A stretch of DNA of 43,058 bases. Source: Solirubrobacterales bacterium (GTDB lineage Bacteria > Actinomycetota > Thermoleophilia > Solirubrobacterales > 70-9). Position numbers and translations under genes: made by a program. The notes under the pieces are model-generated. The model was not told the DNA's origin, did not search any database, and saw nothing but the letters and a program-made list of their open reading frames with translations. Location of the stretch: assembly GCA_036393155.1 (NCBI GenBank), contig DASVWP010000280.1, forward strand, positions 1-43,058, in the 5' to 3' direction. How positions within the stretch are numbered: the first letter of the stretch is position 1; every line of letters starts with the position of its first letter. Below, in pieces: positions 9,516 through 43,028 of the stretch.

Positions 9516-9556
9516 CTGGAGAACGTTAGCGACGCTCACGGTTAGTCTCCCGCGCG
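9516..9556. promoter_or_regulatory. Compact divergent promoter region with two facing -10-like boxes
   Basis: TAACGT on the minus strand (plus coordinates 9523-9528) lies 7 nt from GTG 9515. TAGTCT (9543-9548) lies 8 nt from ATG 9557. Confidence 0.45.
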
Positions 9557-12499: not shown

Positions 12500-12508
12500 C
12501 CAGGAGAA

Positions 12509-13168: not shown

Positions 13169-13220
13169 GCGCGCAAGCCTATTGACCGCGACCGCTGGGA
13201 GATTGGCTAGCCTGCCGCCG
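13169..13220. promoter_or_regulatory. 52-bp divergent region with back-to-back -10-like boxes
   Basis: TAGGCT on the minus strand (plus coordinates 13176-13181) lies 7 nt from GTG 13168. TAGCCT (13208-13213) lies 7 nt from ATG 13221. Confidence 0.45.
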
Positions 13221-14243: not shown

Positions 14244-14255
14244 GCCCGTCGCGGT

Positions 14256-15032: not shown

Positions 15033-15106
15033 GTGCCGGAACTCTAGCCGTCGACAGGCGCCAGGGGCGCCTGGAAGCCGACGATCCGGTTGCTACGCTC
15101 CCGGCG
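15033..15106. promoter_or_regulatory. Divergent promoter region with two -10-like boxes flanking a perfect 8-bp palindromic hairpin
   Basis: TAGAGT on the minus strand is at plus coordinates 15041-15046. CAGGCGCC-AGG-GGCGCCTG is at 15055-15073. TGCTACGCT, an extended -10-like element, is at 15091-15099, 7 nt from ATG 15107. Confidence 0.45.
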
Positions 15107-25340: not shown

Positions 25341-25394
25341 TGACGGAACACTACCGCGAGCCTCGGGTTGCGGTATCTGCGAAGCTGCTGAGCA
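25341..25394. promoter_or_regulatory. Divergent intergenic region between wzt and the family B membrane protein gene
   Basis: A TAGTGT -10-like box on the minus strand (plus coordinates 25348-25353) lies 7 nt from ATG 25340. I found no convincing box for the plus-strand gene. Confidence 0.35.
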
Positions 25395-27176: not shown

Positions 27177-28831
27177 TGGCGCTGCGGAGACGCGATGCAC
27201 CGGTTCTGTTGCTCGGTGCGGCCCTGGCAGGGGCCGCCGCGCTGCTGATCGCGCTGACCTGGGAACTCACCTTCTTCCAGGACACCTGGGCTTTCCTGAT
27301 GGAAAGGCAGGGCTCTTCGCTGCACGACTTCCTGGCACCGCACAACGAGCACCTCGTGGTGTTCCAGGTCGCCCTGGAGAAGCTGCTGATCAACACCTTC
27401 GGGATGACCACCGCTCATCCCGAACTGTTTGTGATGATCGCCATGCTGCTGGCCAACGGCGCGCTTCTGTTCGCGTACGTGCGCCGCCGCCTGGGGGACT
27501 GGTCGGCATTGATGATGGCCGCCCTGCTGCTCTTCCTCGGCTCGGCCTGGCAGGTCCAGCTTTGGCCGTTCGAGATCGAGTTCGTGGCCCCGATCATGAC
27601 CGGGCTGGGAGTCCTGCTGTTGCTCGAACGCGAGGATCGCCTGGGGGACGCTTGGGCTTGCCTGCTGATCGTCATCGGCATCGGCTTTGGCAGCCTCGGT
27701 TTGTCCTTCGCATTGGCGGCGGCGGCCGATGTTTGGGTCAGACGGCGCGAGCGGGGTCTTTGGAGCCGGCTCTGGATCGTCGTCGTTCCCTTTGTCCTCT
27801 ACGGCCTCTGGTACGTCGGCTGGGGCCACGAAGCCGAACACCACTTGACTCTGCACAACCTCCTGCGCCTGCCGCCTTACGTCTTGGAAGGTGTCGGCAC
27901 CGCCCTTGCGGCACTCAGCGGTCTGCTCACGCTCAACTTCAGCGGACCGAGCGATCCCTTCTGGGGCCGGCCGCTGATCATCGTCGTGGTCGCTCTGATT
28001 GCCTACGTGAAGTGGCGGCGCCCCGGGTTTGCCTGGACGCTCTGGCCGGTCCTCGTCGCCGCCTTCAGCTACTGGATCCTCGCCGGCCTCAACTACATCC
28101 CGGGCAGGGAAGCTTCCTCGCCGCGCTATGTCTACGCCAGCGCCGCCTTCGTCCTGATGGTGAGCGCGGAGCTCCTGCGCGGGTCGCGGTTGAGTCGGCG
28201 CGGAATTCTGATCGCCGGAGCGCTGACGGCCGTCGCGGTGATGCCGAATCTGGCTCAAATGAAGGAAGGAGCCGATTGGCTGAAGGAACAGACGGTGCTC
28301 ACCCGCGCTGACACCGGCGCAATCGAAATCGCCAGCCGCACGGTCGAACCGTCGTTCAGATTGACGCCGGAACTCGCCGGCACCCCTTCGTTGGTCAACG
28401 TCGACGCCGGTGATTACCTGTCCGCTGTCGAAGCTCACGGCTCCCCTGCCTACTCGCCCGTCCAGCTGGCCGCCACCCGCGAAGTCGGTCGACACTGGGC
28501 GGACGTGGTCCTGGCCCGAGCTCTTCCGGTTTCGCTGGAAACGGAATTCGGCACCTACGCGCACGCGGCCGCCCGGAGCTGCACTGCGATCGCTCCCGGC
28601 TCGGCTCCTCCGGCGGGCGTGGAACTGGCACCCGGCTCAACCAAAATTGAAGTCGCTCCCGGGCCGCCCGTGAGCTTCAGCCTCCGTCGCTTCGCGGTAG
28701 CCGAATTCCCCGTCAAAACCTCCGGCGCCCCAGGCGAATCAACCAGCTACATCGGGATCCCACACGACCGCGCTTCCCAGCCGTGGTTCCTGCATCTCGA
28801 AGCTCAGCAGCCCGTTCGGGTCTGTCGCTGA
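27176..28831 (+). CDS. Uncharacterised polytopic membrane protein, family A paralog 3 (551 aa)
   Basis: ATG 27176 lies within the track's 980-aa ORF 25889..28831. The protein begins MALRRRDAPVLLLG... and carries the full family A motif set. The upstream 429 aa of the track ORF are an out-of-frame shadow of the preceding gene. Confidence 0.8.
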   Translation: MALRRRDAPVLLLGAALAGAAALLIALTWELTFFQDTWAFLMERQGSSLHDFLAPHNEHLVVFQVALEKLLINTFGMTTAHPELFVMIAMLLANGALLFAYVRRRLGDWSALMMAALLLFLGSAWQVQLWPFEIEFVAPIMTGLGVLLLLEREDRLGDAWACLLIVIGIGFGSLGLSFALAAAADVWVRRRERGLWSRLWIVVVPFVLYGLWYVGWGHEAEHHLTLHNLLRLPPYVLEGVGTALAALSGLLTLNFSGPSDPFWGRPLIIVVVALIAYVKWRRPGFAWTLWPVLVAAFSYWILAGLNYIPGREASSPRYVYASAAFVLMVSAELLRGSRLSRRGILIAGALTAVAVMPNLAQMKEGADWLKEQTVLTRADTGAIEIASRTVEPSFRLTPELAGTPSLVNVDAGDYLSAVEAHGSPAYSPVQLAATREVGRHWADVVLARALPVSLETEFGTYAHAAARSCTAIAPGSAPPAGVELAPGSTKIEVAPGPPVSFSLRRFAVAEFPVKTSGAPGESTSYIGIPHDRASQPWFLHLEAQQPVRVCR

Positions 28832-28848: not shown

Positions 28849-29685
28849 TCACGCTTTATCGCTGAACAACCGCGTTGCGCGTCGTCGCCATGCCCGCAGC
28901 CCGTTGGTCGCTGGCAGCGGCGGGTGCTCCATCGGATTCGGCGGCGGCATCTGGCCCTGCTTGCGCAGCACGACCATGAACTCGATTCCCTGACGGGCCC
29001 CCGCCTCGAGGTCGAAGGACTCCCCGAAGCGTTCCCGGCAGTGGAGGATCAGGCGCATGAACTCGGCCTGGGTCCAGACATGCATGTGTATCGAGTAAGC
29101 CTTCGCTTCCAGGTCGCGAGCATGGGCTAGGCATTCCTCGTCGGTCTGGCCCTCCTTCGCCTCGACCAGCCGCGACCACTCGTCGTAGTGCTGGCGGCGT
29201 GAGCGCTCCGGCCCCTCCTCGTAATCGGCGATCACGTGCTCCAGCGGCGTCACCGGGCGGCGGAAGTCGAAGGTGAATCGCTTGTCGGGCACGGCGTAGA
29301 AGAGGGTTCCTCCTCCTCTTAGCCTGGCGAGATGGGTCTCAATCGTGCGGATCGGGTTCTCGCAGTGCTCCAGAAAGTGATTGGCGACGATGAAGTCCTG
29401 CGATCCTTCAGCAGCCGTCGCCAGGCGCTCGCCATCGTCAACGAGGTCCACTGGGGTGAGGTCCCAGTCGGCGAGCTCGGGGTACTCCCGCCTCAGGTCG
29501 TCGATCGGCATCCGATCGACGTATCGCGCTCGGGCGGTCGGGGGCAGGGTCAGCGGCTGGTGGAGCGGCCCGATCTCGAGGCCTTCTCCGAACAGGAAGC
29601 GATCGGCGAGCTCACGGCGGGCGTCGAGGTACAGGGGCGGGGCGGGGGAAGGCCCTGCCTGTGTCTCCCCTGGAGGCTGATTCAT
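28849..29685 (-). CDS. Class I SAM-dependent methyltransferase
   Basis: Motifs are GLEIGP, IVANHFLEH and GGTLFYAVPDKR. ATG 29685 has a TAGCCT box 7 nt upstream. The upstream part of ORF 28849..29868 is low-complexity sequence. Confidence 0.75.
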   Translation of the reverse strand: MNQPPGETQAGPSPAPPLYLDARRELADRFLFGEGLEIGPLHQPLTLPPTARARYVDRMPIDDLRREYPELADWDLTPVDLVDDGERLATAAEGSQDFIVANHFLEHCENPIRTIETHLARLRGGGTLFYAVPDKRFTFDFRRPVTPLEHVIADYEEGPERSRRQHYDEWSRLVEAKEGQTDEECLAHARDLEAKAYSIHMHVWTQAEFMRLILHCRERFGESFDLEAGARQGIEFMVVLRKQGQMPPPNPMEHPPLPATNGLRAWRRRATRLFSDKA

Positions 29686-29746
29686 CCCCGAGAGGCTATC
29701 TGGAGGGACAAGCGCATCAGACCCAAGTGCTGTCAGGCTTGCAGCC
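29686..29746. promoter_or_regulatory. Divergent intergenic region between the methyltransferase and GT2 genes
   Basis: TAGCCT on the minus strand (plus coordinates 29693-29698) lies 7 nt from ATG 29685. I found no clear element for the plus-strand GTG at 29747. Confidence 0.35.
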
Positions 29747-30712
29747 GTGGCGGCATCCGCACCTCTCGCGGTGGTGATCCCGAGCTGGAATTCAGTCGAG
29801 CTTCTGCCGCGTTGCCTCGACTCGCTCGCGGGCCAGGGGGTGGAGCTGGAGGTGCTGGTGGTCGACAACGGTTCCAGCGACGGCTCGGTCCCCTACCTCG
29901 AGCGCCGCGGGACCCCTTGTCTCTCGCTGCCCCGGAACGTCGGGTTCGCCGCCGCGGTCAATCTCGGGGCCTCCCGGGTCACGGCGCCTCTCGTGCTCTC
30001 GTTGAACGCCGATACGGCCCTCGAGCCGGGCGTGGTCGAGTCCCTGCTTTCCGTGCTGGCGGACGACCCCTCGCTGGGCGGCGTGCAGCCCCGCATCCTG
30101 CAGCTCGAGGCAACGAGGCCCCCGAACCTGGCCACGGCTCGCCTCTATAGCGTTGGCCAGGCGCTGACCGGCGACGGGCGCGCGGTGGAGATGGGCGCCG
30201 GGATGCAGCAGCGCCCCGAGCTACTGCAGAGGCGTGAGATCTTCGGCGTCTGCGGCGCCGCCTGTCTGCTGCGGCGCGAGTTGTTCGATGACCTCGGTGG
30301 CTACGACGAGCGGTACTTCGCCTTCTATGAGGACGTCGACCTGAACGTGCGGGCGCGGATTGCCGGCTGGCGCTTCGAGTTCGTCCCCGAGGCGGTCGTG
30401 TGGCACCGCGGAAACGCTTCCTGGCAGGCCGGCGTAGACCGTGCCGGAGCCTGGAATGCGAGGCTCGTCGCCCGCAACCGTCTCGCCACCCAGATCAAGT
30501 TCATGCCGGTGGCAGCCGCGCCGCGGATTGCCGCCGTCGAGGTGGGGGCGTTGGCTCGGGCCGCGGCGCAGCGTCGCTTCCTGGCCACGCTGCGGGGAAA
30601 GCTGGCGGCCCTGCGGTGGTTGCCCGAGCTGCTCAAAGAGCGCGGCAGGCTGCGGCGCGACGGAGACGTCGAGCTGGCCCGGCGCTGGCTTGGCGCGGAC
30701 CGGCTCAGCTAG
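29747..30712 (+). CDS. GT2 glycosyltransferase (WbbL-like, possible rhamnosyltransferase)
   Basis: Motifs are VVIPSWN, VVDNGSSDGS, NVGFAAAVN, LNADT and FYEDVDLNVR. The start is GTG. Confidence 0.8.
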   Translation: MAASAPLAVVIPSWNSVELLPRCLDSLAGQGVELEVLVVDNGSSDGSVPYLERRGTPCLSLPRNVGFAAAVNLGASRVTAPLVLSLNADTALEPGVVESLLSVLADDPSLGGVQPRILQLEATRPPNLATARLYSVGQALTGDGRAVEMGAGMQQRPELLQRREIFGVCGAACLLRRELFDDLGGYDERYFAFYEDVDLNVRARIAGWRFEFVPEAVVWHRGNASWQAGVDRAGAWNARLVARNRLATQIKFMPVAAAPRIAAVEVGALARAAAQRRFLATLRGKLAALRWLPELLKERGRLRRDGDVELARRWLGADRLS

Positions 30713-32555: not shown

Positions 32556-33482
32556 CTAGTCGCGCCGCCGCCGCCGCCGCTCCAGCGCCTCCCGGGCGGT
32601 GATCTGCAGCAGCGACGCGCCGTCGACGTCGCGTGGCTCCAGCCCGCGCCCGTCGCGCCATCCGCGCAGACGGCCCGCCAGCCCCTGTCCCGTGCGGTCG
32701 CGCAGCAGCTGTCCGGCGCAGATCGCGCCCTCGCAGGCGAGCGCGCGCAGGGCCAGCCCGGGGTGCGACATCACGCCGTAGCGGCGCAGCATGTAGCCGC
32801 GGCTCCAGCCGGTGAAGGAGTACTTGCGGGCGCTGGCGGCGCCGAGGCTGGCCGAGTAGGCGTGCAGCGCGCGAGCGTCGCCGGCGAGCCGGCAGCGCGC
32901 TCCCGCCGCCGCCATCCGCAGGGCCAGGTCGAGGTCCTCGTAGTAGAGGAAGATCCGCTCGTCGAAGCCGCCGACGGCCTCGAAGGCCTCGCGGCGGTAG
33001 AGCGCCGCGCCGCCGGTCGGGCCCAGCGGTGCGGGCGCGGACAGCGCCGCCTCGGCCGCCTCGCCGTGCAGGTAGTCGAAGCCCATCAGGGTGCGGTCGG
33101 CGACCACCCCAGCCGAGTCGATAAGCCCCGGCTCGCGCTCCTGCAGCAGCACTCCGGCGACCGTCTCGGCGCCCTCGGCCGCCGCCAGCAGCGCCGCCGC
33201 GAAGCCCGGCTCGGCGCGGGCGTCGTTGTTGAGCAGGATCAGCAGCTCGGCCGGGTGCCGGCGGACGGCCTGGTTGATCGCCGCGCCGAAACCCAGGTTG
33301 CGCCCCAGCTCCAGGACCGTCACCTCCGGGAACTCGCGCCGCGCCAGCGCCACCGAGTCGTCGCTGGAGCCGTTGTCCACGAGGACGACCTCGACCGGCT
33401 CGCTCTGCTCGCGCAGGCTGGCGAGGGTCTCGCCAAGCCGCGCGGCGCCGTTGAAGTTGGGGATGTAAACGGCCGCTCGCAC
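32556..33482 (-). CDS. GT2 glycosyltransferase (WbbL-like)
   Basis: This is the C-terminal 308 aa of ORF 32556..34442. Motifs are VYIPNFNG, LVDNGSSDDS, NLGFGAAIN, LNNDA and YYEDLDLALR. GTG 33482 is preceded by GAAGGAG. The upstream part of the ORF is a shadow of rmlA. Confidence 0.8.
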   Translation of the reverse strand: MRAAVYIPNFNGAARLGETLASLREQSEPVEVVLVDNGSSDDSVALARREFPEVTVLELGRNLGFGAAINQAVRRHPAELLILLNNDARAEPGFAAALLAAAEGAETVAGVLLQEREPGLIDSAGVVADRTLMGFDYLHGEAAEAALSAPAPLGPTGGAALYRREAFEAVGGFDERIFLYYEDLDLALRMAAAGARCRLAGDARALHAYSASLGAASARKYSFTGWSRGYMLRRYGVMSHPGLALRALACEGAICAGQLLRDRTGQGLAGRLRGWRDGRGLEPRDVDGASLLQITAREALERRRRRRD

Positions 33483-33518
33483 CGCTCCTTCTCTCAGTGG
33501 GTAGGGTTGCAGCCTCGC

Positions 33519-34595
33519 ATGGAGCCCTTGAAGGGACTGATTCTCTCCGGCGGCGCAGGCACGCGGCTTCGTCCGATCACCCACACCTCGGCGAAGCAGC
33601 TCGTTCCCGTGGCCAACAAACCCGTTCTCTTCTACGGGATCGAGGCGCTGGTCGACGCCGGGGTCGAGGAGATCGGGATCATCATCGCGCCTGAGACCGG
33701 TGAGGAGATCCGCGCCGCCGCCGGCGACGGCTCGCGCTTCGGCGCCCGCATCACCTACATCGTCCAAGACCGCCCGGCCGGGCTCGCCCACGCGGTGCTG
33801 ACCGCGGAGGAGTTCATCGGCGGCTCGCCGTTCGTCATGTACCTGGGCGACAACCTGCTGCGCGACGGCCTGCGCGGCCTCGTCTCGACCTTCCGGGCCG
33901 AGGAGCCCGACGCGCTGATTCTCCTCACCCCCGTCGAGGAGCCCCAGCACTACGGGGTCGCCGAGCTCGACGGCGAGCGGATCGTGCGGCTGATCGAGAA
34001 GCCCAAAGACCCGCCCTCCAACCTCGCCCTGGTCGGCGTCTACCTCTTCCAGCCGGCGATCTTCGACGCCGCCCGGGCGCTCGAGCCCTCCTGGCGCGGC
34101 GAGCTGGAGATCACCGAGGCGATCCAGAGCCTGATCGACGACGGCCACCGCGTGCAGTCGGAGATCGTGCGCGGCTGGTGGAAGGACACCGGCCAGCTCG
34201 CCGACATGCTCGACGCCAACCGGCTGGTCCTCGAGGAGATCGAGACCGAGCTGGCGGGCGACGTCGACGAGGGCTCGCGGGTCGAGGGCCGGGTCGTGCT
34301 CGAGGCGGGCGCCTCGCTGGTGCGCTCGGTCATCCGCGGCCCGGCGGTGATCGGCGCCGGCGCCTGCATCGAAGACGCCTACGTCGGTCCCTACACCTCG
34401 ATCGGCGAGAACGTCCAGGTGCGCCGCTCGGAGGTCGAGCACTCGATCGTCCTCGCCGGCTCGGTGGTCGAGGACCTCGGCACGCGGATGGAGGCCAGCC
34501 TCCTGGGCCGCGAAGTGAAGCTGACCCGCAGCAGCGGCATGCCGAAGACGCTGCGCCTGCTGGTCGGCGACAAGTGCGAGATCGAAATCGTCTAG
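33519..34595 (+). CDS. rmlA: Glucose-1-phosphate thymidylyltransferase, long form with C-terminal left-handed beta-helix
   Basis: Motifs are GLILSGGAGTRLRPIT, YLGDN, YGVAE and a hexapeptide-repeat tail. ATG 33519 lies in ORF 32763..34595. A TAGGGT box lies 11 nt upstream. Confidence 0.9.
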   Translation: MEPLKGLILSGGAGTRLRPITHTSAKQLVPVANKPVLFYGIEALVDAGVEEIGIIIAPETGEEIRAAAGDGSRFGARITYIVQDRPAGLAHAVLTAEEFIGGSPFVMYLGDNLLRDGLRGLVSTFRAEEPDALILLTPVEEPQHYGVAELDGERIVRLIEKPKDPPSNLALVGVYLFQPAIFDAARALEPSWRGELEITEAIQSLIDDGHRVQSEIVRGWWKDTGQLADMLDANRLVLEEIETELAGDVDEGSRVEGRVVLEAGASLVRSVIRGPAVIGAGACIEDAYVGPYTSIGENVQVRRSEVEHSIVLAGSVVEDLGTRMEASLLGREVKLTRSSGMPKTLRLLVGDKCEIEIV

Positions 34596-34608
34596 TGGGG
34601 GTCATGGC

Positions 34609-35460
34609 ATGAAGCTGCTGATCGCCGGAGCGGGCGGGATGCTGGGGCGCGACGTCGTCCTCGCGGCCGGCAACGCCGGCCACGACGTGGTCGGCTTCGG
34701 CCACGCCGAGCTCGACGTCACCGACCCGGCGGCGCTGGAGCGCAAGTTCGACCTCGAGCGCCCCGACGTGGTGATCAACTGCGCCGCCTGGACCGACGTC
34801 GACGGTGCCGAGGAGTCCGAGGAGGCGGCCTTCGCGATCAACGGCACCGGTGCCGGGAACGTCGCCGCCGCCGCGGCGGAGGCCGGCGCCAGCGTCGTCT
34901 TCATCTCCACCGACTACGTCTTCGACGGCGGCAAGGGCTCCCCGTACGTCGAGTCCGACCAGCCGGCGCCGCTCTCCGCCTACGGCCGCACCAAGCTGGC
35001 CGGTGAGGAGGCGACCGCGGCGGCCAACAAGCGCCACTTCGTCGTCCGCTCCTCCTGGCTGTTCGGGATCGGCGGCGGCAACTTCGTGGAGACGATGCTG
35101 CGGCTCGCCGACAGCCAGAACGAGGTCCTGGTGGTTCGCGACCAGGTCGGCTCGCCGACCTACACCTGGCACCTCGCCTACGGGGTGGTGCGGCTGATCG
35201 AGGGGATGGAGTACGGGATCCACCACATGGCGGCCGGCGGCCACTGCTCCTGGTACGACTTCGCCCGCGAGATCTTCGAGCAGGCCCAGGTCGAGTGCAA
35301 AGTCCTCTCGGGGACGACCGAGATGCTCGGCCGCCCGGCCCCGCGGCCGGCCTTCTCGGCCCTGGAGAGCCAGCGCGAGCACGCGATCCTCCTGCCTCCC
35401 TGGCAGGACGGCCTGGCGGGGTACCTGGCCCAACGACAAGCGGAGAGGGAGGGAGGATGA
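34609..35460 (+). CDS. rmlD: dTDP-4-dehydrorhamnose reductase
   Basis: Motifs are MKLLIAGAGGMLG, NCAAWTDVD, STDYVFDG and YGRTKLAGE. Confidence 0.9.
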   Translation: MKLLIAGAGGMLGRDVVLAAGNAGHDVVGFGHAELDVTDPAALERKFDLERPDVVINCAAWTDVDGAEESEEAAFAINGTGAGNVAAAAAEAGASVVFISTDYVFDGGKGSPYVESDQPAPLSAYGRTKLAGEEATAAANKRHFVVRSSWLFGIGGGNFVETMLRLADSQNEVLVVRDQVGSPTYTWHLAYGVVRLIEGMEYGIHHMAAGGHCSWYDFAREIFEQAQVECKVLSGTTEMLGRPAPRPAFSALESQREHAILLPPWQDGLAGYLAQRQAEREGG

Positions 35461-36440
35461 AGATCCTCGTCACCGGCGCCGCCGGTTTCATCGGTTCCAC
35501 CTACGTGCGCCTGGTCGGCTCCGAGCACGACGTCGTCGTGCTCGACAAGCTCACCTACGCCGGCCGGCGCGAGAACCTGCCCGAGGGCACGCCGCTGGTG
35601 GTCGGCGCGATCGAGGACCCGGCGGCGGTGCGCGAAGCGATGCAGGGCGTCGACGCGGTGGTCAACTTCGCCGCCGAGTCCCACGTCGACCGCTCGATCG
35701 AGGACCAGAACGCCTTCGCCCGCACCCACGTGATCGGCACCGGGACGCTGCTGGACGCCGCCCGCGAGCTCGGCGTCGAGCGCTACCTGCAGGTCTCCAC
35801 CGACGAGGTCTACGGCTCGATCGAGTCCGGCTCGTTCACCGAGACCTCGCCCCTGGACCCCTCCTCGCCCTACTCGGCGACCAAGGCCGCCGGCGACCTG
35901 CTGGTCGCCGCGCACGTCCACACCTACGGCATCGACGCCTCGATCGTCCGCGGCTCCAACAACTACGGCCCGCGCCAGTACCCCGAGAAGCTGATCCCGC
36001 TGATGGTGCTGAACGCCCTGCACGGCGACCCGCTGCCGGTCTACGGCGACGGCCGCCAGGTCCGCAACTGGCTCTTCGTCGAGGACTTCTGCCGCGGCAT
36101 CCACACCGTGCTGGCGAAGGGGAAGGCCGGCGAGGCCTACAACGTCGGCGGCCCCGAGGAGTGCGAGAACATCGAGGTCGTCAAGCGGGTTATCGAGCTG
36201 ACCGGGGGGGACGAGTCGCTGATCGAGTACGTCACCGACCGGCCCGGCCACGACCGCCGCTACTCGCTCTCCTCGGCGAAGCTGAAGGAGGAACTCGGCT
36301 GGGAGGCCGAGGTCCACTTCGACGAGGGCCTGGAGAAGACCGTGCGGTGGTACCGCGACAACGAGGAGTGGTGGGGGCCGATCCGCTCCGGCGAGTACCG
36401 CGAGTACTACGAGAAGCAGTACGGGAAGGCGCTGCGCTAG
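35457..36440 (+). CDS. rmlB: dTDP-glucose 4,6-dehydratase
   Basis: ATG 35457 overlaps the rmlD stop (ATGA). Motifs are ILVTGAAGFIGS, STDEVYG, YSATKAAGD and HDRRYS. Confidence 0.9.
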   Translation: MKILVTGAAGFIGSTYVRLVGSEHDVVVLDKLTYAGRRENLPEGTPLVVGAIEDPAAVREAMQGVDAVVNFAAESHVDRSIEDQNAFARTHVIGTGTLLDAARELGVERYLQVSTDEVYGSIESGSFTETSPLDPSSPYSATKAAGDLLVAAHVHTYGIDASIVRGSNNYGPRQYPEKLIPLMVLNALHGDPLPVYGDGRQVRNWLFVEDFCRGIHTVLAKGKAGEAYNVGGPEECENIEVVKRVIELTGGDESLIEYVTDRPGHDRRYSLSSAKLKEELGWEAEVHFDEGLEKTVRWYRDNEEWWGPIRSGEYREYYEKQYGKALR

Positions 36441-36994
36441 TGCCGGAGCGCCTGCCGACCCGGATCGAGGGGCTCGTCCTGCTGGAGCCTGTCGTCCACG
36501 GCGACGAGCGCGGCTTCATGGTCGAGACGTTCAGCCGCGAGCAGTGGGCGGAGCTGGGGGTGGACCTCCCGTTCGTCCAGCACAACCACTCGCGCTCGCG
36601 CCGCGGCACCCTGCGCGGGATCCACTTCCAGACCGAGCCGGGGCAGGCGAAGCTCGTCCGCTGCGCCCGCGGCGAGGTCCTCGACGTCGCCGTCGACCTG
36701 CGCCGCGGCTCGCCGACCTTCGGCCAGTGGGAAGCCCAGGTCCTCGACGACGTCCGCCACCGCCAGTTCTTCGTTCCCGTCGGCTTCGGCCACGGCTTCG
36801 TCGTCCTCAGCGAGACCGCCGACTTCTGCTACCAGGTGTCGAGCCTCTACGACCCCGAGACCGAGTCGGGGATCGCCTGGGACGACCCCGACGTCGGGGT
36901 CGACTGGCGGGTTGCCGAGCCGCTGCTCTCCGAGCGCGACAAGCAGGCCCCGCGCCTCGCCGAGGTCGCCGACTCGCTGCCCTTCGCCGTCTAG
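36440..36994 (+). CDS. rmlC: dTDP-4-dehydrorhamnose 3,5-epimerase
   Basis: GTG 36440 overlaps the rmlB TAG by 1 nt. The cupin motifs are DERGFM, RGIHFQ, GFGHGF and the conserved Tyr in FCYQVSSLY. Confidence 0.9.
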   Translation: MPERLPTRIEGLVLLEPVVHGDERGFMVETFSREQWAELGVDLPFVQHNHSRSRRGTLRGIHFQTEPGQAKLVRCARGEVLDVAVDLRRGSPTFGQWEAQVLDDVRHRQFFVPVGFGHGFVVLSETADFCYQVSSLYDPETESGIAWDDPDVGVDWRVAEPLLSERDKQAPRLAEVADSLPFAV

Positions 36995-37872
36995 CGTCGC
37001 CGGCCGGCCGCGGTGATCGCCAGGCTGACCGCCAGCTTGGCGCCGATCCCTGCGTAGACCGCGGCGTTCAGCAGGGGGTTCGCCCCCGGTGCCTCGAAGC
37101 GGCGGTAGAAGCGACCCATGCCGCGGTGGAAGGCGACCTCCTGGCGCGGCCGGCGGCGCGCCCCGCTGGATGCCCCCTTGACGTGCAGGGCCACCCCGGC
37201 CGGCTCGTAGAAGACCTTCCAGCCGGCGTCCCAGAAGCGGTGGCACCAGTCGAGGTCCTCCATGTAGAGCCAGTAGCCCTCGTCGAGCAGGCCGACGTCG
37301 CGCACCGCCTCGGCGCGGCAGAGCATGAAGGCGCCGTTGACCGCGTCGACCTCTCCCGGCTCCTCGTCGCCGAGGTGGGTCGCCCGGTACTGGCTCAGCG
37401 AGTCCGCGGCGCCGGCGCCGCGGCCGACCCCGGTGAAGTGGGCGAGGGCGCTCAGCGGCGTGGGGAAGGAGCGCTTGCAGGCGTGGTCCAGCTCGCCGCT
37501 CTCGGTCACCAGCTTGCAGCCGACCATGCCGATGCGCGGCTCCGACCACAGCCGCGCCAGCACCGCGTCGAGGGTCCCGGCATAGACCTCGGTGTCGGGG
37601 TTGAGGAGCAGCACCGCCGGGGCCTCGCTCTCGCGCAGCACGAGGTTGTTGGCGGCCGAGAAGCCGACGTTGCCGCGGCGCAGCAGCCGCGCCGCGGCGA
37701 ACTCGCGCTCGACCATGTCCGGGGTGCCGTCCGGGCTGCCGCTGTCGACCACCGTCACCCGCATCGAGCCGGCGCTCGGGGGATGCTCGGCGAGCGAGTG
37801 CAGGCAGCGCCGCAGCAGCCCTTCGGCCCCGTGGCTGACGATCACGACCTCGAGGTCGGGGGCGGGCGGCAT
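36991..37872 (-). CDS. GT2 glycosyltransferase (WbbL-like)
   Basis: Motifs are VVIVSHG, VVDSGSPDGT, NVGFSAANN, LNPDT and YMEDLDWCHR. Its stop overlaps the rmlC stop (CTAG at 36991-36994). Confidence 0.8.
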   Translation of the reverse strand: MPPAPDLEVVIVSHGAEGLLRRCLHSLAEHPPSAGSMRVTVVDSGSPDGTPDMVEREFAAARLLRRGNVGFSAANNLVLRESEAPAVLLLNPDTEVYAGTLDAVLARLWSEPRIGMVGCKLVTESGELDHACKRSFPTPLSALAHFTGVGRGAGAADSLSQYRATHLGDEEPGEVDAVNGAFMLCRAEAVRDVGLLDEGYWLYMEDLDWCHRFWDAGWKVFYEPAGVALHVKGASSGARRRPRQEVAFHRGMGRFYRRFEAPGANPLLNAAVYAGIGAKLAVSLAITAAGRRR

Positions 37873-37881
37873 CGTCGGCGG

Positions 37882-39381
37882 CTAGTAGGCGCCGTTGCCG
37901 CGGAAGATCGCCTGCGGCGTGCGGATCAGGATCGAGAGGTCGGTGAGCAGCGAGAGGTTGTCGAGGTAGTCGCGCTCCATCGCCAGCCGCTCCTCGAAGG
38001 TCAGGTCGCTGCGCCCGTAGACCTGCATCGGCCCGGTCACTCCCGGCTTCACCGCCAGCCGCGTGCGCTGGCGCTCGTCGTACAGGGCGACCACGCTCTC
38101 CTCCTCGGGCCGCGGGCCGACCAGCGACATCTGGCCGCGCAGGACGTTGATCAGCTGCGGCAGCTCGTCGAGGCTGGTCCGGCGCAGCCAGCGGCCGGTC
38201 CGGGTGACCCGCGGGTCGTCGGGGATCTTGAAGGCGGGCTGCTCGAGCGCCGCCAGGTCGACCAGGTCGGCAAGCCGCTCCTCGGCGTCGGCGACCATGG
38301 TGCGGAACTTCAGCATCGTGAATGGCTCGCCTTCCTGGCCGGCGCGGCGCTGGCGGAAGAGGACCGGCCGGCCGGTGTCGAGGAGGATCGCCAGGGCGAT
38401 CGCCGCCAGCAGCGGCGAGAGCACGACCAGCACGAAGGCGGCGACCACCACGTCCATCCCGCGCTTCAGCGCCTGCGTCGAGCGCGGCGGGTCGCTGAAG
38501 CGGAAGTCGAGGACCGGCAGCTCGGCCAGCCGGTTGAGCTCGATCCCCGGCCCGAGCAGCCCGTAGTGCTGGGGCAGGAAGGTCAGAGCCAGGCCCTCCG
38601 CCTTGCACTGCTCGATCAGCCGCTCGGCGGCCATCTCGCTCATCTCCTGTTCGGTGACCACGACGCGCTCGATCTCGTATTCGCGGGCGACCTGCGAGAT
38701 GTCGGCGATCGAGCCCAGGCGCGGCAGCTCCTTGCCCCCGTCGGCCTTGTCGGAGAGATAGCCGACCAGTCCGAGCCGCGTCTCGGGGTGCGTGGAGACC
38801 CGGCGGGCGACGACGTCGGCCGCCGCTCCCGGGCCGACCACCACGCCGAGGGCGACGGGGGTCAGCCGGTGCCACAGGAACCGCACCGTCCCCCGCAGCA
38901 CGACGCTGCCGAAAAGGGTCCCGACCCCCAGCGCGATCGCGCTCGCCGGCGACAGCGGGCCGACCGGGCTGAGCGCCAGCAGACCGTCCAGGGCCAGGGT
39001 GCCGAGGACGGCGGCGGAGACCAGCGAGGCGAGCTCGTCGAGCGTGCTGTGGCGGATCCGCCGGTGGTCCTTGTCGTAGAGGCCGTTCAGCTTCACGACG
39101 AGGATCCAGACCGGGCTGAAGAGGACCGCCCAGAAGAGCGTCGCGATGTCGGTGCTGGAGGTCGCCGCGGTGATGGCGCAAAGCGACACGCACAGGGCGG
39201 TCCAGTCGCCGAACGCGAGAAGCCGGCGCAGCAGGGCGCCGCGCCGCCGCGACTCGCTGGCCCCGGGCGCGGGCGTCATCGGAGCCCGTGAGCCGCGATC
39301 GGCGGCCGGCCGCCCGGCCGCCGGAGCGCTCACCCGCTCCTCGGTCGCCTTGCTCCGTGCGGTGTCGGAGATCCGGCTCAT
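37882..39381 (-). CDS. Polyprenyl-phosphate glycosyl-1-phosphate transferase (WbaP/WsaP/CpsE-type bacterial sugar transferase), pathway initiator
   Basis: This is the C-terminal 499 aa of track ORF 37882..41316. It has N-terminal helices, a central Rossmann-like segment and a C-terminal catalytic domain (KRGMDVV, FKFRTM-like MLKFRTM, DELPQLINVLRGQMSLVGPRPE). ATG 39381 overlaps the upstream stop (ATGA). Confidence 0.85.
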   Translation of the reverse strand: MSRISDTARSKATEERVSAPAAGRPAADRGSRAPMTPAPGASESRRRGALLRRLLAFGDWTALCVSLCAITAATSSTDIATLFWAVLFSPVWILVVKLNGLYDKDHRRIRHSTLDELASLVSAAVLGTLALDGLLALSPVGPLSPASAIALGVGTLFGSVVLRGTVRFLWHRLTPVALGVVVGPGAAADVVARRVSTHPETRLGLVGYLSDKADGGKELPRLGSIADISQVAREYEIERVVVTEQEMSEMAAERLIEQCKAEGLALTFLPQHYGLLGPGIELNRLAELPVLDFRFSDPPRSTQALKRGMDVVVAAFVLVVLSPLLAAIALAILLDTGRPVLFRQRRAGQEGEPFTMLKFRTMVADAEERLADLVDLAALEQPAFKIPDDPRVTRTGRWLRRTSLDELPQLINVLRGQMSLVGPRPEEESVVALYDERQRTRLAVKPGVTGPMQVYGRSDLTFEERLAMERDYLDNLSLLTDLSILIRTPQAIFRGNGAY

Positions 39382-41396
39382 CGGCAGGCTTCCGGCCCTT
39401 CTTCGATACAGGCTTCGCGCGGGTTCAGGCGCAGGGCTTCCCGCAGGTCCGCCCGCGCGGCGGATTCGTTGCCGGCTTCGTGCTCGATCCGCGCCCGCAG
39501 GTAATAGAGAAGCCAGTTGCCTTCCTCGCGTTCGATCGCCTTGCCCATCATTTCCGAGGCGGTGGCGAATTCGCCCTGGCCCTCGTACAGCAGCCCCAGC
39601 TGGACGTACGGCGAGGCCGCCCAGGGCTCGATCGAGCGGGCGGTCTTCGCGTGTTCGATCGCCGAGGCCACGTTGCCGTCGGCGCTCGCCGTCTGGCTGG
39701 CGTCGAGCTCGTGGTGGACCAGAAGCGGTCCGATCAGCGCCAGGGCGGCGATCCAGGCGACCGCCAGGCCGGCGATCGCGATGCCGTAGCGCCGCCGCTC
39801 GCCGCGCCCGTTGCCCTCCACCCGCAGTTGGGCCAGCTGCCCGCAGCGCGCCGCGACCAGGACGGCGGCGGCGAGGAAGAAGACCGCCCCGAGCCCGGCG
39901 ATCGCCCAGAACCAGTCGATCGCCGCGCCGACCGCGAAGGCCAGGCAGGCGGCGAGCAGGGCGGCGTAGAGCTCCCGGCGGGCCCCGCTCGCCGCGCGCC
40001 AGGCCGCGAAGCCGGTCCACAGCAGGAACAGCACCAGGCCGAGCACCAGCAGACCGCCGATCGTCCCCAGCTCTGCGAAAGCCTGCAGGTAGAGCGAGTG
40101 GGCTTCGAGGACCGGCATCGTGGTGTGCCGCAGCTGATCCCAGGCGAAGCGGTAGGTGCCGGCACCCTTGCCGGCCACCGGGTCTTCGGCGAAGGCGTCG
40201 AGGGCGACGCGCCAGAATTCGCTGCGGCCGGAGCCGGAGAGCTGCCCGAAGTGCTGCTGGGGCTGGCTCGGCAGCTGCACGTCGGAGCTGCTGAACTGGT
40301 GCCAGGCGCGGCCGCCGACCGCGATCGCCGCGCCGATCGCCAGCAGCGCCGCGACCAGGGCGAGTGCCCGCAGGACGCGGCGGTCGCGGGAGAGCGCCAG
40401 CGCCCGCCCGGTGAGCGCGCCGCCTCGCGCCTCCAGTCGCCGCAGGCCGGCCCAGAGAGCCAGCGAGAGGGCGATCCCGGCGAGGAGCAGCAGGAGGACC
40501 GTCGCGCCCTGGCCGGCGATCGACGGGTTGTCGAAGTTGTTGGCGATCGTGTCGTGGGCCTGGACCGACAGCACCGCCGGCACCGCCCCGACCGCCCCGA
40601 CCGCCAGCGTTCCCAGGAGCAAGAGCCGGTCGGGCGAGAGGGCCAGCAGGCAGAGGCCGGCGACCAGCAGGGCCAGCAGGCCGCCACGCGAGTAGGTGAA
40701 GTAGAGGGCGAGCAGCAGCGCCGGCAGCGAGGCGACCGCGAGCCAGCGCAGGGAGGCGTTCAGCGAGCGCCGGCTGAGCCAGAGCGAGAGCACCGTGCCG
40801 ATCCCGAAGGCGACCCCGTCGGCGTTCCAGTATCCGAGGGGGTAGCCGAGCCGGGAATTGCTCCCCGGGCCGTCTCCCAGAGCGAACACGTGGGGCAGCA
40901 GCCGGCTGGTCAGGGCCAGGATCGCGACGCCGATCAGCGAAATTGCGATGCCTTCGGCGAAACGTTGGCGCCTTTGGTCGGTTTGGGCGATCAGAAACGC
41001 GGCAACGAAGAACCCGAGGTAGACCAGCACACGGTCGGCTTCGATCACGCTCAGCTCGACAGACCCGGACCAAAGAGATGAGGATGCGGAAAAAAGCGCT
41101 AGTGCCCCGATCAGCCCAACCGCCCAGTAGAAAGGCCTCCCGAGCGTCGCTCGGCCGCCGAGGCCGAGGGCGAGCATGCCAACCAGGATCAGCCATACGG
41201 CCAGGCCGGCGACGTGCCGAGATCCCAGCGCAAAGCCACCTCCGCCCAGCGCGAGGCCAAGGATCAAGAGTGGCGGACCTATCAGCGCCGCTGATTCCTC
41301 TAACCTTGCCCGCCATGCATCGGACCCGCCACCCACGTGCCCGGAGCTCGGCCCTGCGCGCCGTCTCGCTTCTCTCAATGCTTGCTGTGCTGGCAT
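39378..41396 (-). CDS. O-antigen ligase family (Wzy_C domain) polytopic membrane protein fused to a C-terminal TPR domain
   Basis: The Wzy_C-like core carries FTYSRGGLLALLVAG and GKGAGTY...EAHSLYLQAFAELG. TPR-like repeats occupy the last 105 aa or so (about 39381-39700). The start is uncertain: ATG 41396 or GTG 41336, and the track start at 41465 is a TTG. Every candidate start overlaps the divergent gene that starts at 41315. Confidence 0.7.
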   Translation of the reverse strand: MPAQQALREARRRAGPSSGHVGGGSDAWRARLEESAALIGPPLLILGLALGGGGFALGSRHVAGLAVWLILVGMLALGLGGRATLGRPFYWAVGLIGALALFSASSSLWSGSVELSVIEADRVLVYLGFFVAAFLIAQTDQRRQRFAEGIAISLIGVAILALTSRLLPHVFALGDGPGSNSRLGYPLGYWNADGVAFGIGTVLSLWLSRRSLNASLRWLAVASLPALLLALYFTYSRGGLLALLVAGLCLLALSPDRLLLLGTLAVGAVGAVPAVLSVQAHDTIANNFDNPSIAGQGATVLLLLLAGIALSLALWAGLRRLEARGGALTGRALALSRDRRVLRALALVAALLAIGAAIAVGGRAWHQFSSSDVQLPSQPQQHFGQLSGSGRSEFWRVALDAFAEDPVAGKGAGTYRFAWDQLRHTTMPVLEAHSLYLQAFAELGTIGGLLVLGLVLFLLWTGFAAWRAASGARRELYAALLAACLAFAVGAAIDWFWAIAGLGAVFFLAAAVLVAARCGQLAQLRVEGNGRGERRRYGIAIAGLAVAWIAALALIGPLLVHHELDASQTASADGNVASAIEHAKTARSIEPWAASPYVQLGLLYEGQGEFATASEMMGKAIEREEGNWLLYYLRARIEHEAGNESAARADLREALRLNPREACIEEGPEACR
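41301..41306 (+). promoter_or_regulatory. -10-like TAACCT hexamer 8 nt upstream of ATG 41315
   Basis: It matches TANNNT with the spacing seen at other first genes in the window. Confidence 0.4.
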
Positions 41397-41872
41397 TCGC
41401 TTTCTTTCCTGGGTTTGCTCAGGCCGAAGAAGCGACCGGCATCCAGTACGAACCTGAAGTACCAACCGTTCCCGGGAAGCAAAGGATCCCTACGAAGGAA
41501 AAGAAGTCGAATTCCGGGGGATCGGAAGCGAGCAGCTCCAACGCTCCGGGCGGTGGCTCCGGCGGAGGGAACACTCCGGGATCAGGCGGCAAGTCCAATA
41601 CCGGCCAGAGTAGCCAAGGAAGCGGCTCCGGCGGTACGCAGACGGGCTCCGGTGGCCAGAATTCAGGCCAGAGCTCGTCCGGCGGGGGGGTCGGCAGCGG
41701 GACCAAGGTCGCGACGGGGGCCCCGGCCAGCCACTCCTCGGGGGGTTCTTCCTCGCCGCTGGTGCCGATCCTGATCGCGGTGGCCGCCCTGGCGGCGATC
41801 TCGATCGGCGCGGTCGTCTACCGGCAGCGGCGCGGCCGCGACGACTCGTTCTCGCCCAACAAGGCGAGCTGA
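41315..41872 (+). CDS. Ser/Gly/Thr-rich mucin-like type I membrane protein (signal peptide, low-complexity stalk of about 83 aa, C-terminal TM anchor)
   Basis: This is the in-frame part of ORF 40943..41872. The signal-like N-terminus ends AFFPGFAQA. The low-complexity region spans about 41507-41755 (SNSGGSEASSSNAPGGGSGGGNTPGSGG...). The TM helix is LVPILIAVAALAAISIGAVVY, followed by the basic tail RQRRGRDD. Confidence 0.6.
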   Translation: MHRTRHPRARSSALRAVSLLSMLAVLAFAFFPGFAQAEEATGIQYEPEVPTVPGKQRIPTKEKKSNSGGSEASSSNAPGGGSGGGNTPGSGGKSNTGQSSQGSGSGGTQTGSGGQNSGQSSSGGGVGSGTKVATGAPASHSSGGSSSPLVPILIAVAALAAISIGAVVYRQRRGRDDSFSPNKAS

Positions 41873-41903
41873 GCCCGTGCTGAAATCGAGGAGGTACACC
41901 AAG

Positions 41904-43028
41904 ATGAAGCTGCGCGCCTGCGTTGCGGCGGTCGCCCTAGTCGTCTGCGGCGTCTTCGCCTCGACCGCACAGGCGTTGCCGGTCGGGTTCTGGGGCGCCG
42001 TGCCGCAGACCAACCTCAGCCAGGAACAGTTCCAGCGCCTGGCCGACGGCGGCGTCGAAAGCATCCGCATCCCGTTCGGCTGGCAGGCGATCCAGCCGGC
42101 CCGCAACGGCGCATACGAATGGGGCAGCCTCGACTCCCAGGTGGAAGCCGCGGCCAAGGCCGGCATCCAGGTCCTGCCCTTCCTCTCCGGCGCCCCGACC
42201 TGGGCGGTCCCCTCGATCTACGTCTCGGGCACCGGGCACAACCTGAAAGCCCCCGCCCACCTGCCGACCACCGGGGCGGGTCGTGCCGCCTGGATCGCCT
42301 TCATCACCGCGGCGGTCGCCCGCTACGGTCCGGCCGGGACGTTCTGGAGCGAACATCCGACCGTCCCCGAGCGGCCGATCCGGACATGGCAGATCTGGAA
42401 CGAGCCGAACTTCAAGTACTTCATCGCCAGGCCGAACCCGGCCGAATACGGCCAGCTGGTGAAGATCTCCTACAACGCCGTCAAAGCGGCCGATCCCGGG
42501 GCGAAGCTCGTGCTGGCCGGGTTGTTCGCCAGGCCCAAGGGCTCGGAAACCCGCACCGGCAAGCACAAGAGCCTGAACTGGAGCGCCAAGAACTTCCTCG
42601 AAGCGATGTACAAGAGCACCCCCGGGGTGCGGACGAAGTTCAACGGCGTGGCCCTGCACCCGTACACGATCCGCTACCGGGAACTGACTCCGGAGATCGA
42701 AACGGTCCGCGGCGTCCTGGCCAAGAACCACGACGGCGGCAAGGGCCTGTGGATCACCGAGTTGGGCTGGAGCTCCGAACCGCCCGACCCGGCGGTGGAC
42801 CAGTTCGCCAAAGGCATCGCCGGGCAGGCCCGGGAACTGAAGGGCGCCTTCACCCTCCTGCGCAGCAAGCAGGTGAAGTGGCGGCTCCAGCAGGTCTACT
42901 GGTTCTCGGTCGACGACGTCGCCGGCGCCTGCAACTTCTGCGGCGGCTCCGGCCTGTTCGCCACCGGGTTCAAGCCGAAGAAGGCCTGGTTCGAATACGT
43001 GAAGCTGACCGGCGGCAGCCCCTTCTAG
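41904..43028 (+). CDS. Secreted clan GH-A-like glycoside hydrolase, family unassigned (paralog 2, 374 aa)
   Basis: ATG 41904 is preceded by GAGGAGG about 10 nt upstream. The signal peptide reads MKLRACVAAVALVVCGVFASTAQA. Motifs are WQIWNEPNF, ITELGWSS and CNFC. It has the same length as the paralog at 4647..5771. Confidence 0.7.
   Translation: MKLRACVAAVALVVCGVFASTAQALPVGFWGAVPQTNLSQEQFQRLADGGVESIRIPFGWQAIQPARNGAYEWGSLDSQVEAAAKAGIQVLPFLSGAPTWAVPSIYVSGTGHNLKAPAHLPTTGAGRAAWIAFITAAVARYGPAGTFWSEHPTVPERPIRTWQIWNEPNFKYFIARPNPAEYGQLVKISYNAVKAADPGAKLVLAGLFARPKGSETRTGKHKSLNWSAKNFLEAMYKSTPGVRTKFNGVALHPYTIRYRELTPEIETVRGVLAKNHDGGKGLWITELGWSSEPPDPAVDQFAKGIAGQARELKGAFTLLRSKQVKWRLQQVYWFSVDDVAGACNFCGGSGLFATGFKPKKAWFEYVKLTGGSPF

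Follow-up and report, generated by a model that had tools for sequence, protein, structure and literature searches.

A 43,058-nt contig of a Solirubrobacterales bacterium (GenBank assembly GCA_036393155.1, contig DASVWP010000280.1; the whole stretch analysed is hereafter termed the window) encodes a polytopic membrane protein in which a Wzy_C domain is joined to C-terminal tetratricopeptide repeats (TPRs). Overlapping this gene head-to-head is a second gene, for a small, secreted and membrane-anchored protein. The pair is retained in near and distant relatives, including relatives in which the genes no longer overlap or have changed their relative orientation. Survival of a gene pair through such changes is a standard comparative-genomics signature of a functional link, and on this comparative evidence the Wzy_C-TPR protein (for brevity, the ligase) and its small neighbour are very probably functional partners. 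Judging from their sequences, it is plausible that the partnership is one of enzyme and substrate in glycosylation. The complete model, in which the ligase glycosylates a small carrier protein, is in our estimation a serious possibility that falls somewhat short of an even chance.

Retention of the gene pair in near and distant relatives

Genes were called from third-position GC content together with Pfam and NCBIfam scans of every credible open reading frame (ORF) in the window, whose GC content is about 70% and whose proteins match metagenome-assembled genomes of the Solirubrobacterales (Thermoleophilia, Actinomycetota). A preliminary description of this DNA had noted a 185-aa protein with a signal peptide, a Ser/Gly low-complexity stalk and a C-terminal transmembrane anchor, all of which are seen in the sequence. 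The signal peptide (residues 1-37) comprises an arginine-rich N-terminus and a hydrophobic core, with cleavage between AQA and EE. Downstream lie the motif IQYEPEVPT (residues 43-51; 41441-41467), the tyrosine of which (Y45) is invariant in 77 of 77 orthologues, the low-complexity Gly/Ser-rich stalk (residues 55-142; 41477-41740) and an invariant Ser-Ser-Pro beside the membrane (residues 146-148). The C-terminal half holds the transmembrane helix SSSPLVPILIAVAALAAISIGAVVY, followed by an RQRR stop-transfer signal and a short basic tail. The protein itself has no Pfam match, and no Pfam domain was found in any of 1106 homologues. Across the 77 orthologues the per-codon-position entropy of the transmembrane region is 0.50/0.38/1.02, a normal coding pattern, and we therefore regard the small ORF as a real gene under purifying selection.

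In the near clade (Solirubrobacterales; ligase identity 56-72%), approximately 78 of 80 genomes have the genes arranged as hydrolase, small gene, ligase and transferase, and glycosyltransferase family 2 (GT2) and rml genes continue after the transferase. Near-clade adjacency alone could be plain synteny, or could follow from the overlap locking the genes together, and is weak evidence; more distant relatives were therefore sampled. An exhaustive search for these returned 1421 cluster representatives at E <1e-30, many of which match the ligase over its full length, TPR domain included, at 33-40% identity. A protein with 37% identity (P0275) served as a second query, with relatives in Thermoleophilaceae and Solirubrobacteraceae genomes. 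In all six genome contexts examined from the P0275 clade (L082-L087), a gene of 153-180 aa without a Pfam match lies directly beside the Wzy_C-TPR gene. This small gene is divergent in L082-L086 and co-directional in L087, where the order is transferase, small gene, ligase. In L084 and L085 the pair is kept without overlap, the genes being separated by gaps of 8 and 30 nt, respectively.

The distant small proteins share the signal peptide, the Tyr motif, a low-complexity region and a C-terminal transmembrane helix with basic residues. Their versions of the motif (for example AEQYVERVPT, VNQYVESVPT and VDQYRESVPT) conform to the general form Q-Y-x-E-x-V-P-T, and that of L087, NEYTEDAPPS, resembles the QYSDAPPT variants of the near clade. 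The L087 protein (7418-7885) is also the only case seen in which the plain anchor is replaced by a sortase signal, composed of LPRTG, a hydrophobic stretch and RR. A sorting signal of the sortase or exosortase type was rejected as the general anchor, given this single variant and the lack of any sortase or exosortase gene in the window.

A further 80 loci, with 36-50% identity to protein P0498, were fetched from metagenomes, and 64 of them have enough upstream DNA. The Tyr-motif pattern gave 44 matches in the interval from -1300 to +300 nt around the ligase start, with none in the other 384 kb, and a match was found beside the ligase in 41 of the 64 loci. Approximately 13 of the small genes are co-directional with the ligase gene and approximately 30 are divergent. 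The distant ligases in paired loci share only 31-37% identity with the window ligase. A second motif, GG(A/S)DA..L..(I/V)ATS..(Y/F)GAP, separates the Tyr motif from the anchor in most of the distant small proteins (L082-L086 and many of L088-L167); in the window clade it is missing and the Gly/Ser-rich stalk takes its position. The parts of the small protein that are conserved throughout are the C-terminal anchor and, near the N-terminus, a short motif whose tyrosine is invariant.

The preliminary description had named conservation of the adjacency in related genomes as a refuting test, and the adjacency proved to be strongly conserved in both near and distant clades. That the two genes have no functional link at all, with adjacency arising only from inseparable overlapping 5' ends and the small ORF encoding an unrelated lineage-specific membrane protein, is very improbable. 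The whole near-clade region is syntenic, so adjacency there counts for little, and the overlap does lock both genes together. However, the pair is kept without overlap in two loci of the distant clade, it persists with the small gene co-directional between transferase and ligase in L087 and the 13 or so metagenome loci, and the motif is found only next to ligase genes. By these comparisons the absence of a link is already largely refuted.

Ligase architecture and the overlapping gene starts

The Wzy_C match of the ligase (PF04932; 60.6 bits against a cut-off of 31.7, E 1.9e-16, residues 299-452) is the sole one among all credible ORFs of the window. Matches to TPR_8 and TPR_2 also exceed their Pfam cut-offs, and a profile search of the PDB aligned approximately 95 C-terminal residues with three-repeat consensus TPR proteins. 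The preliminary description had called this the only ligase-type protein of the locus and a Wzy_C protein with about three C-terminal TPR repeats, and both statements agree with these scans. Within the Wzy_C domain are the loop motifs GR.EFWRV, G.GAGTY and AHS. Its invariant columns persist across clades at 31% identity; among them, R391, R396 and H433 of the large outer loop are unchanged down to that level. The TPR domain terminates in two invariant cysteines, C663 and C671. The best NCBIfam match of the protein, to TIGR03097 (exosortase-A-associated putative O-glycosylation ligase), is partial, at 45.3 bits against a cut-off of 188.1.

An AlphaFold2 model of the ligase, built from 46 homologues, was of moderate confidence (pLDDT 69.6, pTM 0.67). 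Searched with Foldseek, the model gave WaaL (7tpg_B) as the top PDB match (E 3.6e-5, target TM-score 0.64), and the C-terminal domain matched CTPR3 and HOP TPR1 at target TM-scores of 0.8-0.9. A PDB search with the sequence profile of the ligase returned TPR proteins only and no WaaL; the fold search was required to find the latter. The protein has 15 predicted transmembrane helices with the N-terminus inside and the C-terminus outside, a topology that is based on helix count and on the positive-inside rule as applied to the loops RRLEARGG...RDRR, RAASGARRE and RVEGNGRGERRR. The loop bearing R391, R396 and H433 and the TPR domain are thus both predicted to lie outside the cell, which would place the TPR domain on the same side of the membrane as the small-protein ectodomain.

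The junction of the two genes was aligned across 80 related genome loci, and start codons were scored in 78. At the position corresponding to 41396, 55 loci have ATG and 23 have TTG as the ligase start, accounting for 78 of 78, and the small-gene ATG at 41315 is likewise invariant (78/78). Many ligase homologues have been called at 672 aa with 100% coverage. The head-to-head coding overlap that had been suspected is hence confirmed, at 82 nt, with both starts present in all 78 related genomes. Two ligase starts had been considered, 41336 and 41396, of which only the latter stands: the GTG at 41336 is ruled out by the conserved ATG/TTG at 41396, which is preceded by a GGAAAG motif. The overlap measures 82 nt in 56 genomes, 79 in 18, 76 in three and 85 in one. 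These lengths differ by multiples of three, such that the frame relation is kept, and the overlap is far from chance. In this relation third codon positions of either gene coincide with second codon positions of its counterpart, and the third-position entropy of the small gene is consequently 0.58 within the overlap, compared with 1.0-1.4 elsewhere. The top inter-protein covariation pairs are opposite codons (small residue i + ligase residue j = 29; 77 pairs), indicating that a substitution in one protein forces a substitution in the other. Divergent overlaps are the rarest overlap class, comprising two of 663 overlapping pairs in Escherichia coli (PMC4161906).

Immediately upstream of the small-gene ATG, the block 41286-41314 is conserved at all three ligase codon positions, and its consensus, TTCCTCTAACCTTGCGCGCC-ATG, recurs in the 78 loci. 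The block includes TAACCT (TANNNT-type), reported previously as a box 8 nt upstream of the ATG and indeed present at 41301-41306; counted from the A of the ATG it occupies -14 to -9, and it hardly varies among the 78 loci, in none of which does a Shine-Dalgarno sequence precede the small gene. On the ligase strand the same nucleotides fall in codons 31-32 and are read as the rare AGG-TTA. TTA accounts for four of the 1552 Leu codons in window genes, one of the four being ligase codon 32 (41301-41303), and all 78 loci have its TA; a signal on the opposite strand appears to hold this rare codon in place. Leaderless transcripts are common in Mycobacterium tuberculosis, where the centre of TANNNT lies 7-12 bp before the transcription start (PMC3898074). 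The arrangement of the block points to a putative, probably leaderless promoter of the small gene inside ligase codons 28-37.

On the other strand, GGAAAG or GGGAAG is found before the ligase start in most of the 78 loci. The AGGAAAG of the window lies in signal-peptide codons of the small protein, which read FFP here and CFP in most relatives. With a promoter-like block in ligase codons and ligase start signals in the small gene, we infer that two promoters face each other. A scan of 41000-42000 for E. coli-type promoters and terminators returned nothing, a result that is uninformative for actinobacterial TANNNT elements. A structured RNA element is not supported, since an Rfam scan of the window gave no match and the folding z-score of the overlap RNA is -0.11.

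This arrangement poses an annotation problem, with gene callers truncating the ligase and skipping or extending the small gene. The window ligase is truncated to 556 aa (P0002), the small gene of the relative L081 (9495-10001) is left uncalled, and some records (homologue proteins P0121-P0240) stretch the small gene to 255-273 aa. For the window, a small ORF that begins further upstream (309 aa from 40943) was rejected, because variation upstream of 41315 follows the ligase frame and the ATG at 41315 is invariant. One pipeline labels the small gene 'CobN': the JGI designation 'cobalamin biosynthesis Mg chelatase CobN', carried by many homologues, was treated as a low-complexity artefact and has no Pfam or NCBIfam support.

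The surrounding glycan locus

The coordinates of the pair, its internal features and the neighbouring genes are given in Table 1. Downstream of the ligase, the initiating transferase matches Bac_transf (1.9e-64) and CoA_binding_3 in Pfam and exceeds the NCBIfam cut-off for EPS_sugtrans (353.7 bits against 295.6). Translational coupling of the ligase to this gene through ATGA, as noted in the preliminary description, is borne out: plus-strand tcat at 39378-39381 reads ATGA on the minus strand, combining the ligase stop (39378-39380) with the transferase start (39381-39379). The same 4-nt overlap is called in L081, and the transferase adjoins the ligase in approximately 77 of the 80 loci from genomes and 39 of the 80 from metagenomes. 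At the opposite end of the module, the hydrolase (41904-43028) starts 31 nt after the small gene with its own Shine-Dalgarno sequence, GAGGAGG. Its best PDB sequence match is PslG (E 1.8e-8), its Pfam matches to Glyco_hydro_42 and Glyco_hydro_cc are weak, and it is syntenic in approximately 77 of the 80 loci.

Table 1. Positions of the gene pair, its internal elements and the neighbouring genes of the glycan locus within the window.
Feature	Position	Strand	Basis or remark
Wzy_C-TPR membrane protein, 672 aa, candidate en-bloc glycan ligase / O-oligosaccharyltransferase	39378-41396	-	
Wzy_C Pfam domain, residues 299-452	40041-40502	-	includes large loop, predicted extracytoplasmic
C-terminal three-TPR domain, residues ~563-672	39381-39710	-	predicted extracytoplasmic
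Small type I membrane protein, 185 aa	41315-41872	+	
82-nt dual-coding overlap	41315-41396	both	codons 1-27 and first base of codon 28 of each gene
Near-invariant 29-nt block upstream of small-gene ATG	41286-41314	+	encodes ligase residues WRARLEESAA on other strand
Weak Shine-Dalgarno-like AGGAAAG	41404-41410	-	7-13 nt before ligase ATG
Initiating polyprenyl-phosphate glycosylphosphotransferase, WbaP/WsaP-like, 499 aa	37882-39381	-	Pfam, NCBIfam
Secreted PslG-like (GH39-type) glycoside hydrolase	41904-43028	+	PDB sequence match, weak Pfam
GT2	36991-37872	-	Pfam
RmlC	36437-36994	+	Pfam
RmlB	35457-36440	+	Pfam
RmlD	34609-35460	+	Pfam
RmlA	~33531-34595	+	Pfam
GT2	32556 to ~33470	-	Pfam
Wzt with Wzt_C glycan-binding domain	24045-25973 (ORF)	-	true start uncertain
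Wzm	23176-24048	-	
Many GT2, GT4 and methyltransferase genes	11345-21143 and 28849-30712		

The block of GT2 and rml genes (32556-37872) is syntenic in 52-70 of the 80 genome loci. The window also contains double-domain GT2 proteins, one GT4, a GT87/PMT_2-like membrane transferase and six methyltransferases. No window ORF matched a Wzx flippase (Polysacc_synt, MurJ-type) or a Wzz/chain-length regulator, and the 10-kb flanks of L081 contain neither. The Pfam and NCBIfam scans of the window ORFs likewise revealed no LCP ligase, no second Wzy_C protein and no S-layer or SLH-domain gene.

In the Wzt ORF (642 aa) the ABC domain begins only at residue 286, and the true start is probably some 240 codons further in. 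Its C-terminal Wzt_C domain scores 35.6 bits against a cut-off of 30.4; together with the six methyltransferases of the locus, this suggests a capped glycan that is recognised by its exporter. Two genes of the TylF type (macrocin O-methyltransferase family; 1566-2765 and 14256-15032, both on the minus strand, each E ~1e-90) are consistent with a glycan that contains O-methylated sugars. Three membrane proteins of approximately 550 aa, paralogous to one another (5752-7404, 21517-23169 and 27176-28831, all on the plus strand) have 7-9 N-terminal transmembrane helices and a common motif, (F/L)L.ERQGSS..DFL.PHNEHLV, with no Pfam or NCBIfam match. That at 5752-7404 comes after a paralogue of the PslG-like hydrolase (4647-5771), and the three may be uncharacterised membrane glycosyltransferases of the glycan locus. 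Long ORFs of 600-918 aa (36437-39193 and 32556-34442 on the minus strand; 36544-39291 and 32763-34595 on the plus strand) run antisense or out of frame to real genes and have low third-position GC content; they were rejected as high-GC artefacts. Finally, relative L084 possesses two Wzy_C-TPR paralogues (8001-9953 and 11550-13514) flanking the initiating transferase, followed by a WecA-type Glycos_transf_4 gene, that is, two ligase-like and two initiating enzymes in one locus.

A candidate glycosylation pathway and its alternatives

We propose that the Wzy_C-TPR protein may act at the end of a pathway that builds a cell-surface glycan. The WbaP-like transferase coupled to it would start a rhamnose-containing glycan on undecaprenyl phosphate; the glycan would be finished and then exported, for which the route in the window would be the Wzm/Wzt ABC transporter. 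At the outer face of the membrane, the Wzy_C domain would transfer the glycan en bloc to its putative acceptor, the small type I membrane protein encoded head-to-head with it. The external three-repeat TPR module could dock the motif Q-Y-x-E-x-V-P-T of the small protein, and the glycan might be placed on the invariant tyrosine or on stalk Ser/Thr to give a membrane-anchored glycan carrier. The facing promoters may fire towards each other and so exert a mutual influence.

Parts of this arrangement have precedents. In Paenibacillus alvei, WsfB is a predicted O-oligosaccharyltransferase composed of Wzy_C and C-terminal TPR; together with WsfP, which is WbaP-like, it links a Gal-primed glycan, bearing a rhamnose adaptor, to tyrosines of SpaA (PMC2943079). 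The slg cluster of Geobacillus stearothermophilus contains WsaB, an adjacent but separate TPR protein (WsaA), WsaP, rmlACDB, Wzm/Wzt and the methyl-capping enzyme WsaE (PMC2943079). The window resembles both systems in pairing a Wzy_C enzyme with TPR (fused in WsfB, adjacent as WsaA), a likeness drawn from the published descriptions. With slg-type clusters it shares rmlABCD, a WbaP-like transferase, Wzm/Wzt, a methyltransferase and a monoderm host. The residue to which the glycan is linked in these systems is tyrosine (P. alvei) or Ser/Thr (PMC2943079). Unlike their targets, which are self-assembling S-layer proteins encoded at or near the cluster, the candidate target here is a membrane-anchored, mostly disordered protein of 150-200 aa without a Pfam family. 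Further differences from these two systems are a host in the Actinomycetota (Thermoleophilia) in place of the Firmicutes, a PslG-like hydrolase within the module, and the head-to-head overlap of the genes.

The O-oligosaccharyltransferases PglL, PilO/TfpO, PglS and TfpM of Gram-negative bacteria belong to the Wzy_C superfamily, as does the window ligase. Enzymes of the PglL type carry out en-bloc transfer from an undecaprenyl-pyrophosphate donor, their acceptors often lie in flexible low-complexity segments, and pglL genes often adjoin target genes (PMC3643930). Their known targets, however, are pilins and periplasmic proteins and not a single-pass carrier, and enzyme and target genes are usually co-oriented instead of divergently overlapping. 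A conserved Arg and His occupy the last large outer loop of both E. coli WaaL (R288, H338) and PglL (R298, H349) (PMC3643930). The large outer loop of the ligase also has invariant Arg and His, which may be the counterparts of those in WaaL proteins such as that of Cupriavidus metallidurans (7TPG). WaaL has 12 helices and a cytoplasmic end, whereas the window ligase has three more helices and an external TPR domain. Pseudomonas aeruginosa Psl brings together a CoA_binding_3 WbaP-like transferase, a PslG-like hydrolase and a Wzy_C protein (PslA, PslG and PslJ), as the window does, and Psl also contains rhamnose. Unlike Psl, the window is without Wzx (PslK-like), a chain-length regulator (PslE-like) and an outer-membrane exporter. 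PslJ has, to our knowledge, no TPR domain and no conserved small partner gene.

Several considerations speak for transfer of a glycan to the small protein. The role of a ligase is favoured over that of a polymerase because the window holds Wzm/Wzt (with Wzt_C), double-domain GT2 proteins and methyltransferases, and no Wzx, chain-length regulator or LCP, and because a TPR-less Wzy_C coexists with the Wzy_C-TPR gene in L082 and L086. A protein acceptor is favoured since the monoderm host has no lipid A-core, the acceptor of WaaL, and since the TPR domain is predicted to be external. The small protein looks like an acceptor or carrier because it is secreted, anchored and mostly low-complexity with one invariant Tyr motif, and because one variant bears LPRTG. 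The closeness of the precedents, namely WsfB/WsfP of P. alvei (PMC2943079) and the adjacency of pglL to target genes (PMC3643930), further favours a protein acceptor.

Other results weigh against such transfer. The catalytic loop of the ligase has pLDDT <50 in a model that is itself of moderate confidence. A Pfam scan of the ligase (E <= 0.01) gave Wzy_C and TPR families only and none of the PglL-specific domains, and the TfpM model (NCBIfam NF058641) scored 17.2 bits against a cut-off of 600. Sequence does not distinguish an O-oligosaccharyltransferase from a WaaL ligase or a Wzy polymerase (PMC3643930). The PslG-like hydrolase would suit a role in exopolysaccharide formation just as well, and the module of hydrolase, transferase and Wzy_C protein resembles the Psl exopolysaccharide system. 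The Wzy_C protein of Psl is regarded as a polymerase. About one third of the distant loci have no recognisable partner gene. Where a partner is present, Ser/Thr richness is not conserved: Ser+Thr makes up 8-28% of the distant ectodomains, and some orthologues are Pro-rich or Ala/Arg-rich while some have TTPTQ repeats. The 'mucin-like' Ser/Gly-rich stalk, from which the preliminary description took its cue, is therefore not the conserved feature; of the Ser/Gly-rich neighbours that it suggested looking for beside Wzy_C-TPR genes, the small neighbour is conserved and the composition is not. Covariation between the TPR domain and the small protein was not enriched either (30 of the top 200 pairs for 70 of 423 columns), and at the low power of this analysis the result counts neither for nor against docking.

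Two alternative functions of the ligase were weighed. That the finished glycan goes to something other than a protein, for instance a glycolipid anchor or a polymer of the cell wall, with the small protein serving as an unglycosylated, membrane-anchored adaptor or regulator, is somewhat unlikely. The Tyr motif would in that event bind the TPR groove and might thereby help to place, gate or localise either the ligase or the PslG-like hydrolase. This alternative would suit the WaaL-like fold of the closest solved structure, the restriction of conserved small-protein elements to two short linear motifs and an anchor, as opposed to Ser/Thr content, and the operon-like placement of the small gene with the hydrolase in the near clade; moreover, three-repeat TPRs are classical peptide-binding modules, as in the HOP TPR1 and CTPR390 peptide complexes. 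Yet no lipid-anchor pathway is evident in the window scans, and in monoderms the known attachment of exported glycans to the wall is a task of LCP enzymes and not of Wzy_C proteins. A long, fast-evolving disordered ectodomain would be unusual for a dedicated regulator, and the LPRTG variant would leave the membrane, where a regulator of the ligase must act.

Activity as the Wzy-type polymerase of a Psl-like, Wzx/Wzy-dependent exopolysaccharide that contains rhamnose, with the small protein as an accessory of polymerisation or export, such as a stand-in for the missing chain-length regulator, we consider unlikely. A PslG-like hydrolase, a WbaP-like transferase and GT2 genes adjoin the Wzy_C gene, the Pfam Wzy_C family takes in polymerases also, and public annotations name some homologues 'polysaccharide polymerase Wzy-like'. 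The neighbourhood of the Wzy_C-TPR gene includes Wzx-like genes (Polysacc_synt, Polysacc_synt_3) in L085, L086 and L087; in L085 and L087 the Wzy_C-TPR protein is the only Wzy_C protein called, which again tells against transfer to the small protein. Set against this are the absence of Wzx and of a chain-length regulator from the 43-kb window and the L081 flanks, with Wzm/Wzt (including Wzt_C) and methyltransferases present in the window, and the separate, TPR-less Wzy_C of L082 and L086 (the latter also with a Wzx flippase), which fits the polymerase role better. We know of no polymerase in which an extra helix carries a C-terminal outer domain. An extra transmembrane helix with such a domain has been described for the O-oligosaccharyltransferases WsfB and PglL (PMC2943079).

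The enzyme class, the Wzy_C-TPR architecture and the adjacency of enzyme and target genes are already known. New are the Thermoleophilia lineage, the uncharacterised family of small partners with a Tyr motif, often missed or mislabelled by annotation pipelines, and the conserved, long divergent dual-coding overlap with its embedded promoter-like element. Independent of function, the last of these constitutes a well-documented case of such an overlap in at least 78 species-level genomes.

Actinomycetota have been known so far for O-mannosylation of the PMT type. If the pair is indeed enzyme and acceptor, it would be the first protein O-glycosylation system of the Wzy_C type (en bloc, from a lipid-linked donor) to be proposed for this phylum. 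Its acceptor would be minimal and genetically linked, the short recognition motif with its invariant tyrosine would permit direct experiments, and enzyme-sequon pairs of this kind are sought by glycoengineering. A bolder form of the proposal, improbable on present evidence, is a Thermoleophilia 'bacterial proteoglycan', in which a TPR-guided Wzy_C enzyme would join a long rhamnose-containing polysaccharide to the invariant tyrosine (or nearby Ser/Thr) of a small, purpose-built carrier, anchored in the membrane or the wall, whose leaderless promoter would lie in the codons of the enzyme. Were this so, the carrier protein would replace the lipid or peptidoglycan anchors of other bacteria and, in one large clade with an antisense overlap of 76-85 nt, face-to-face transcription would set the ratio of enzyme to acceptor.

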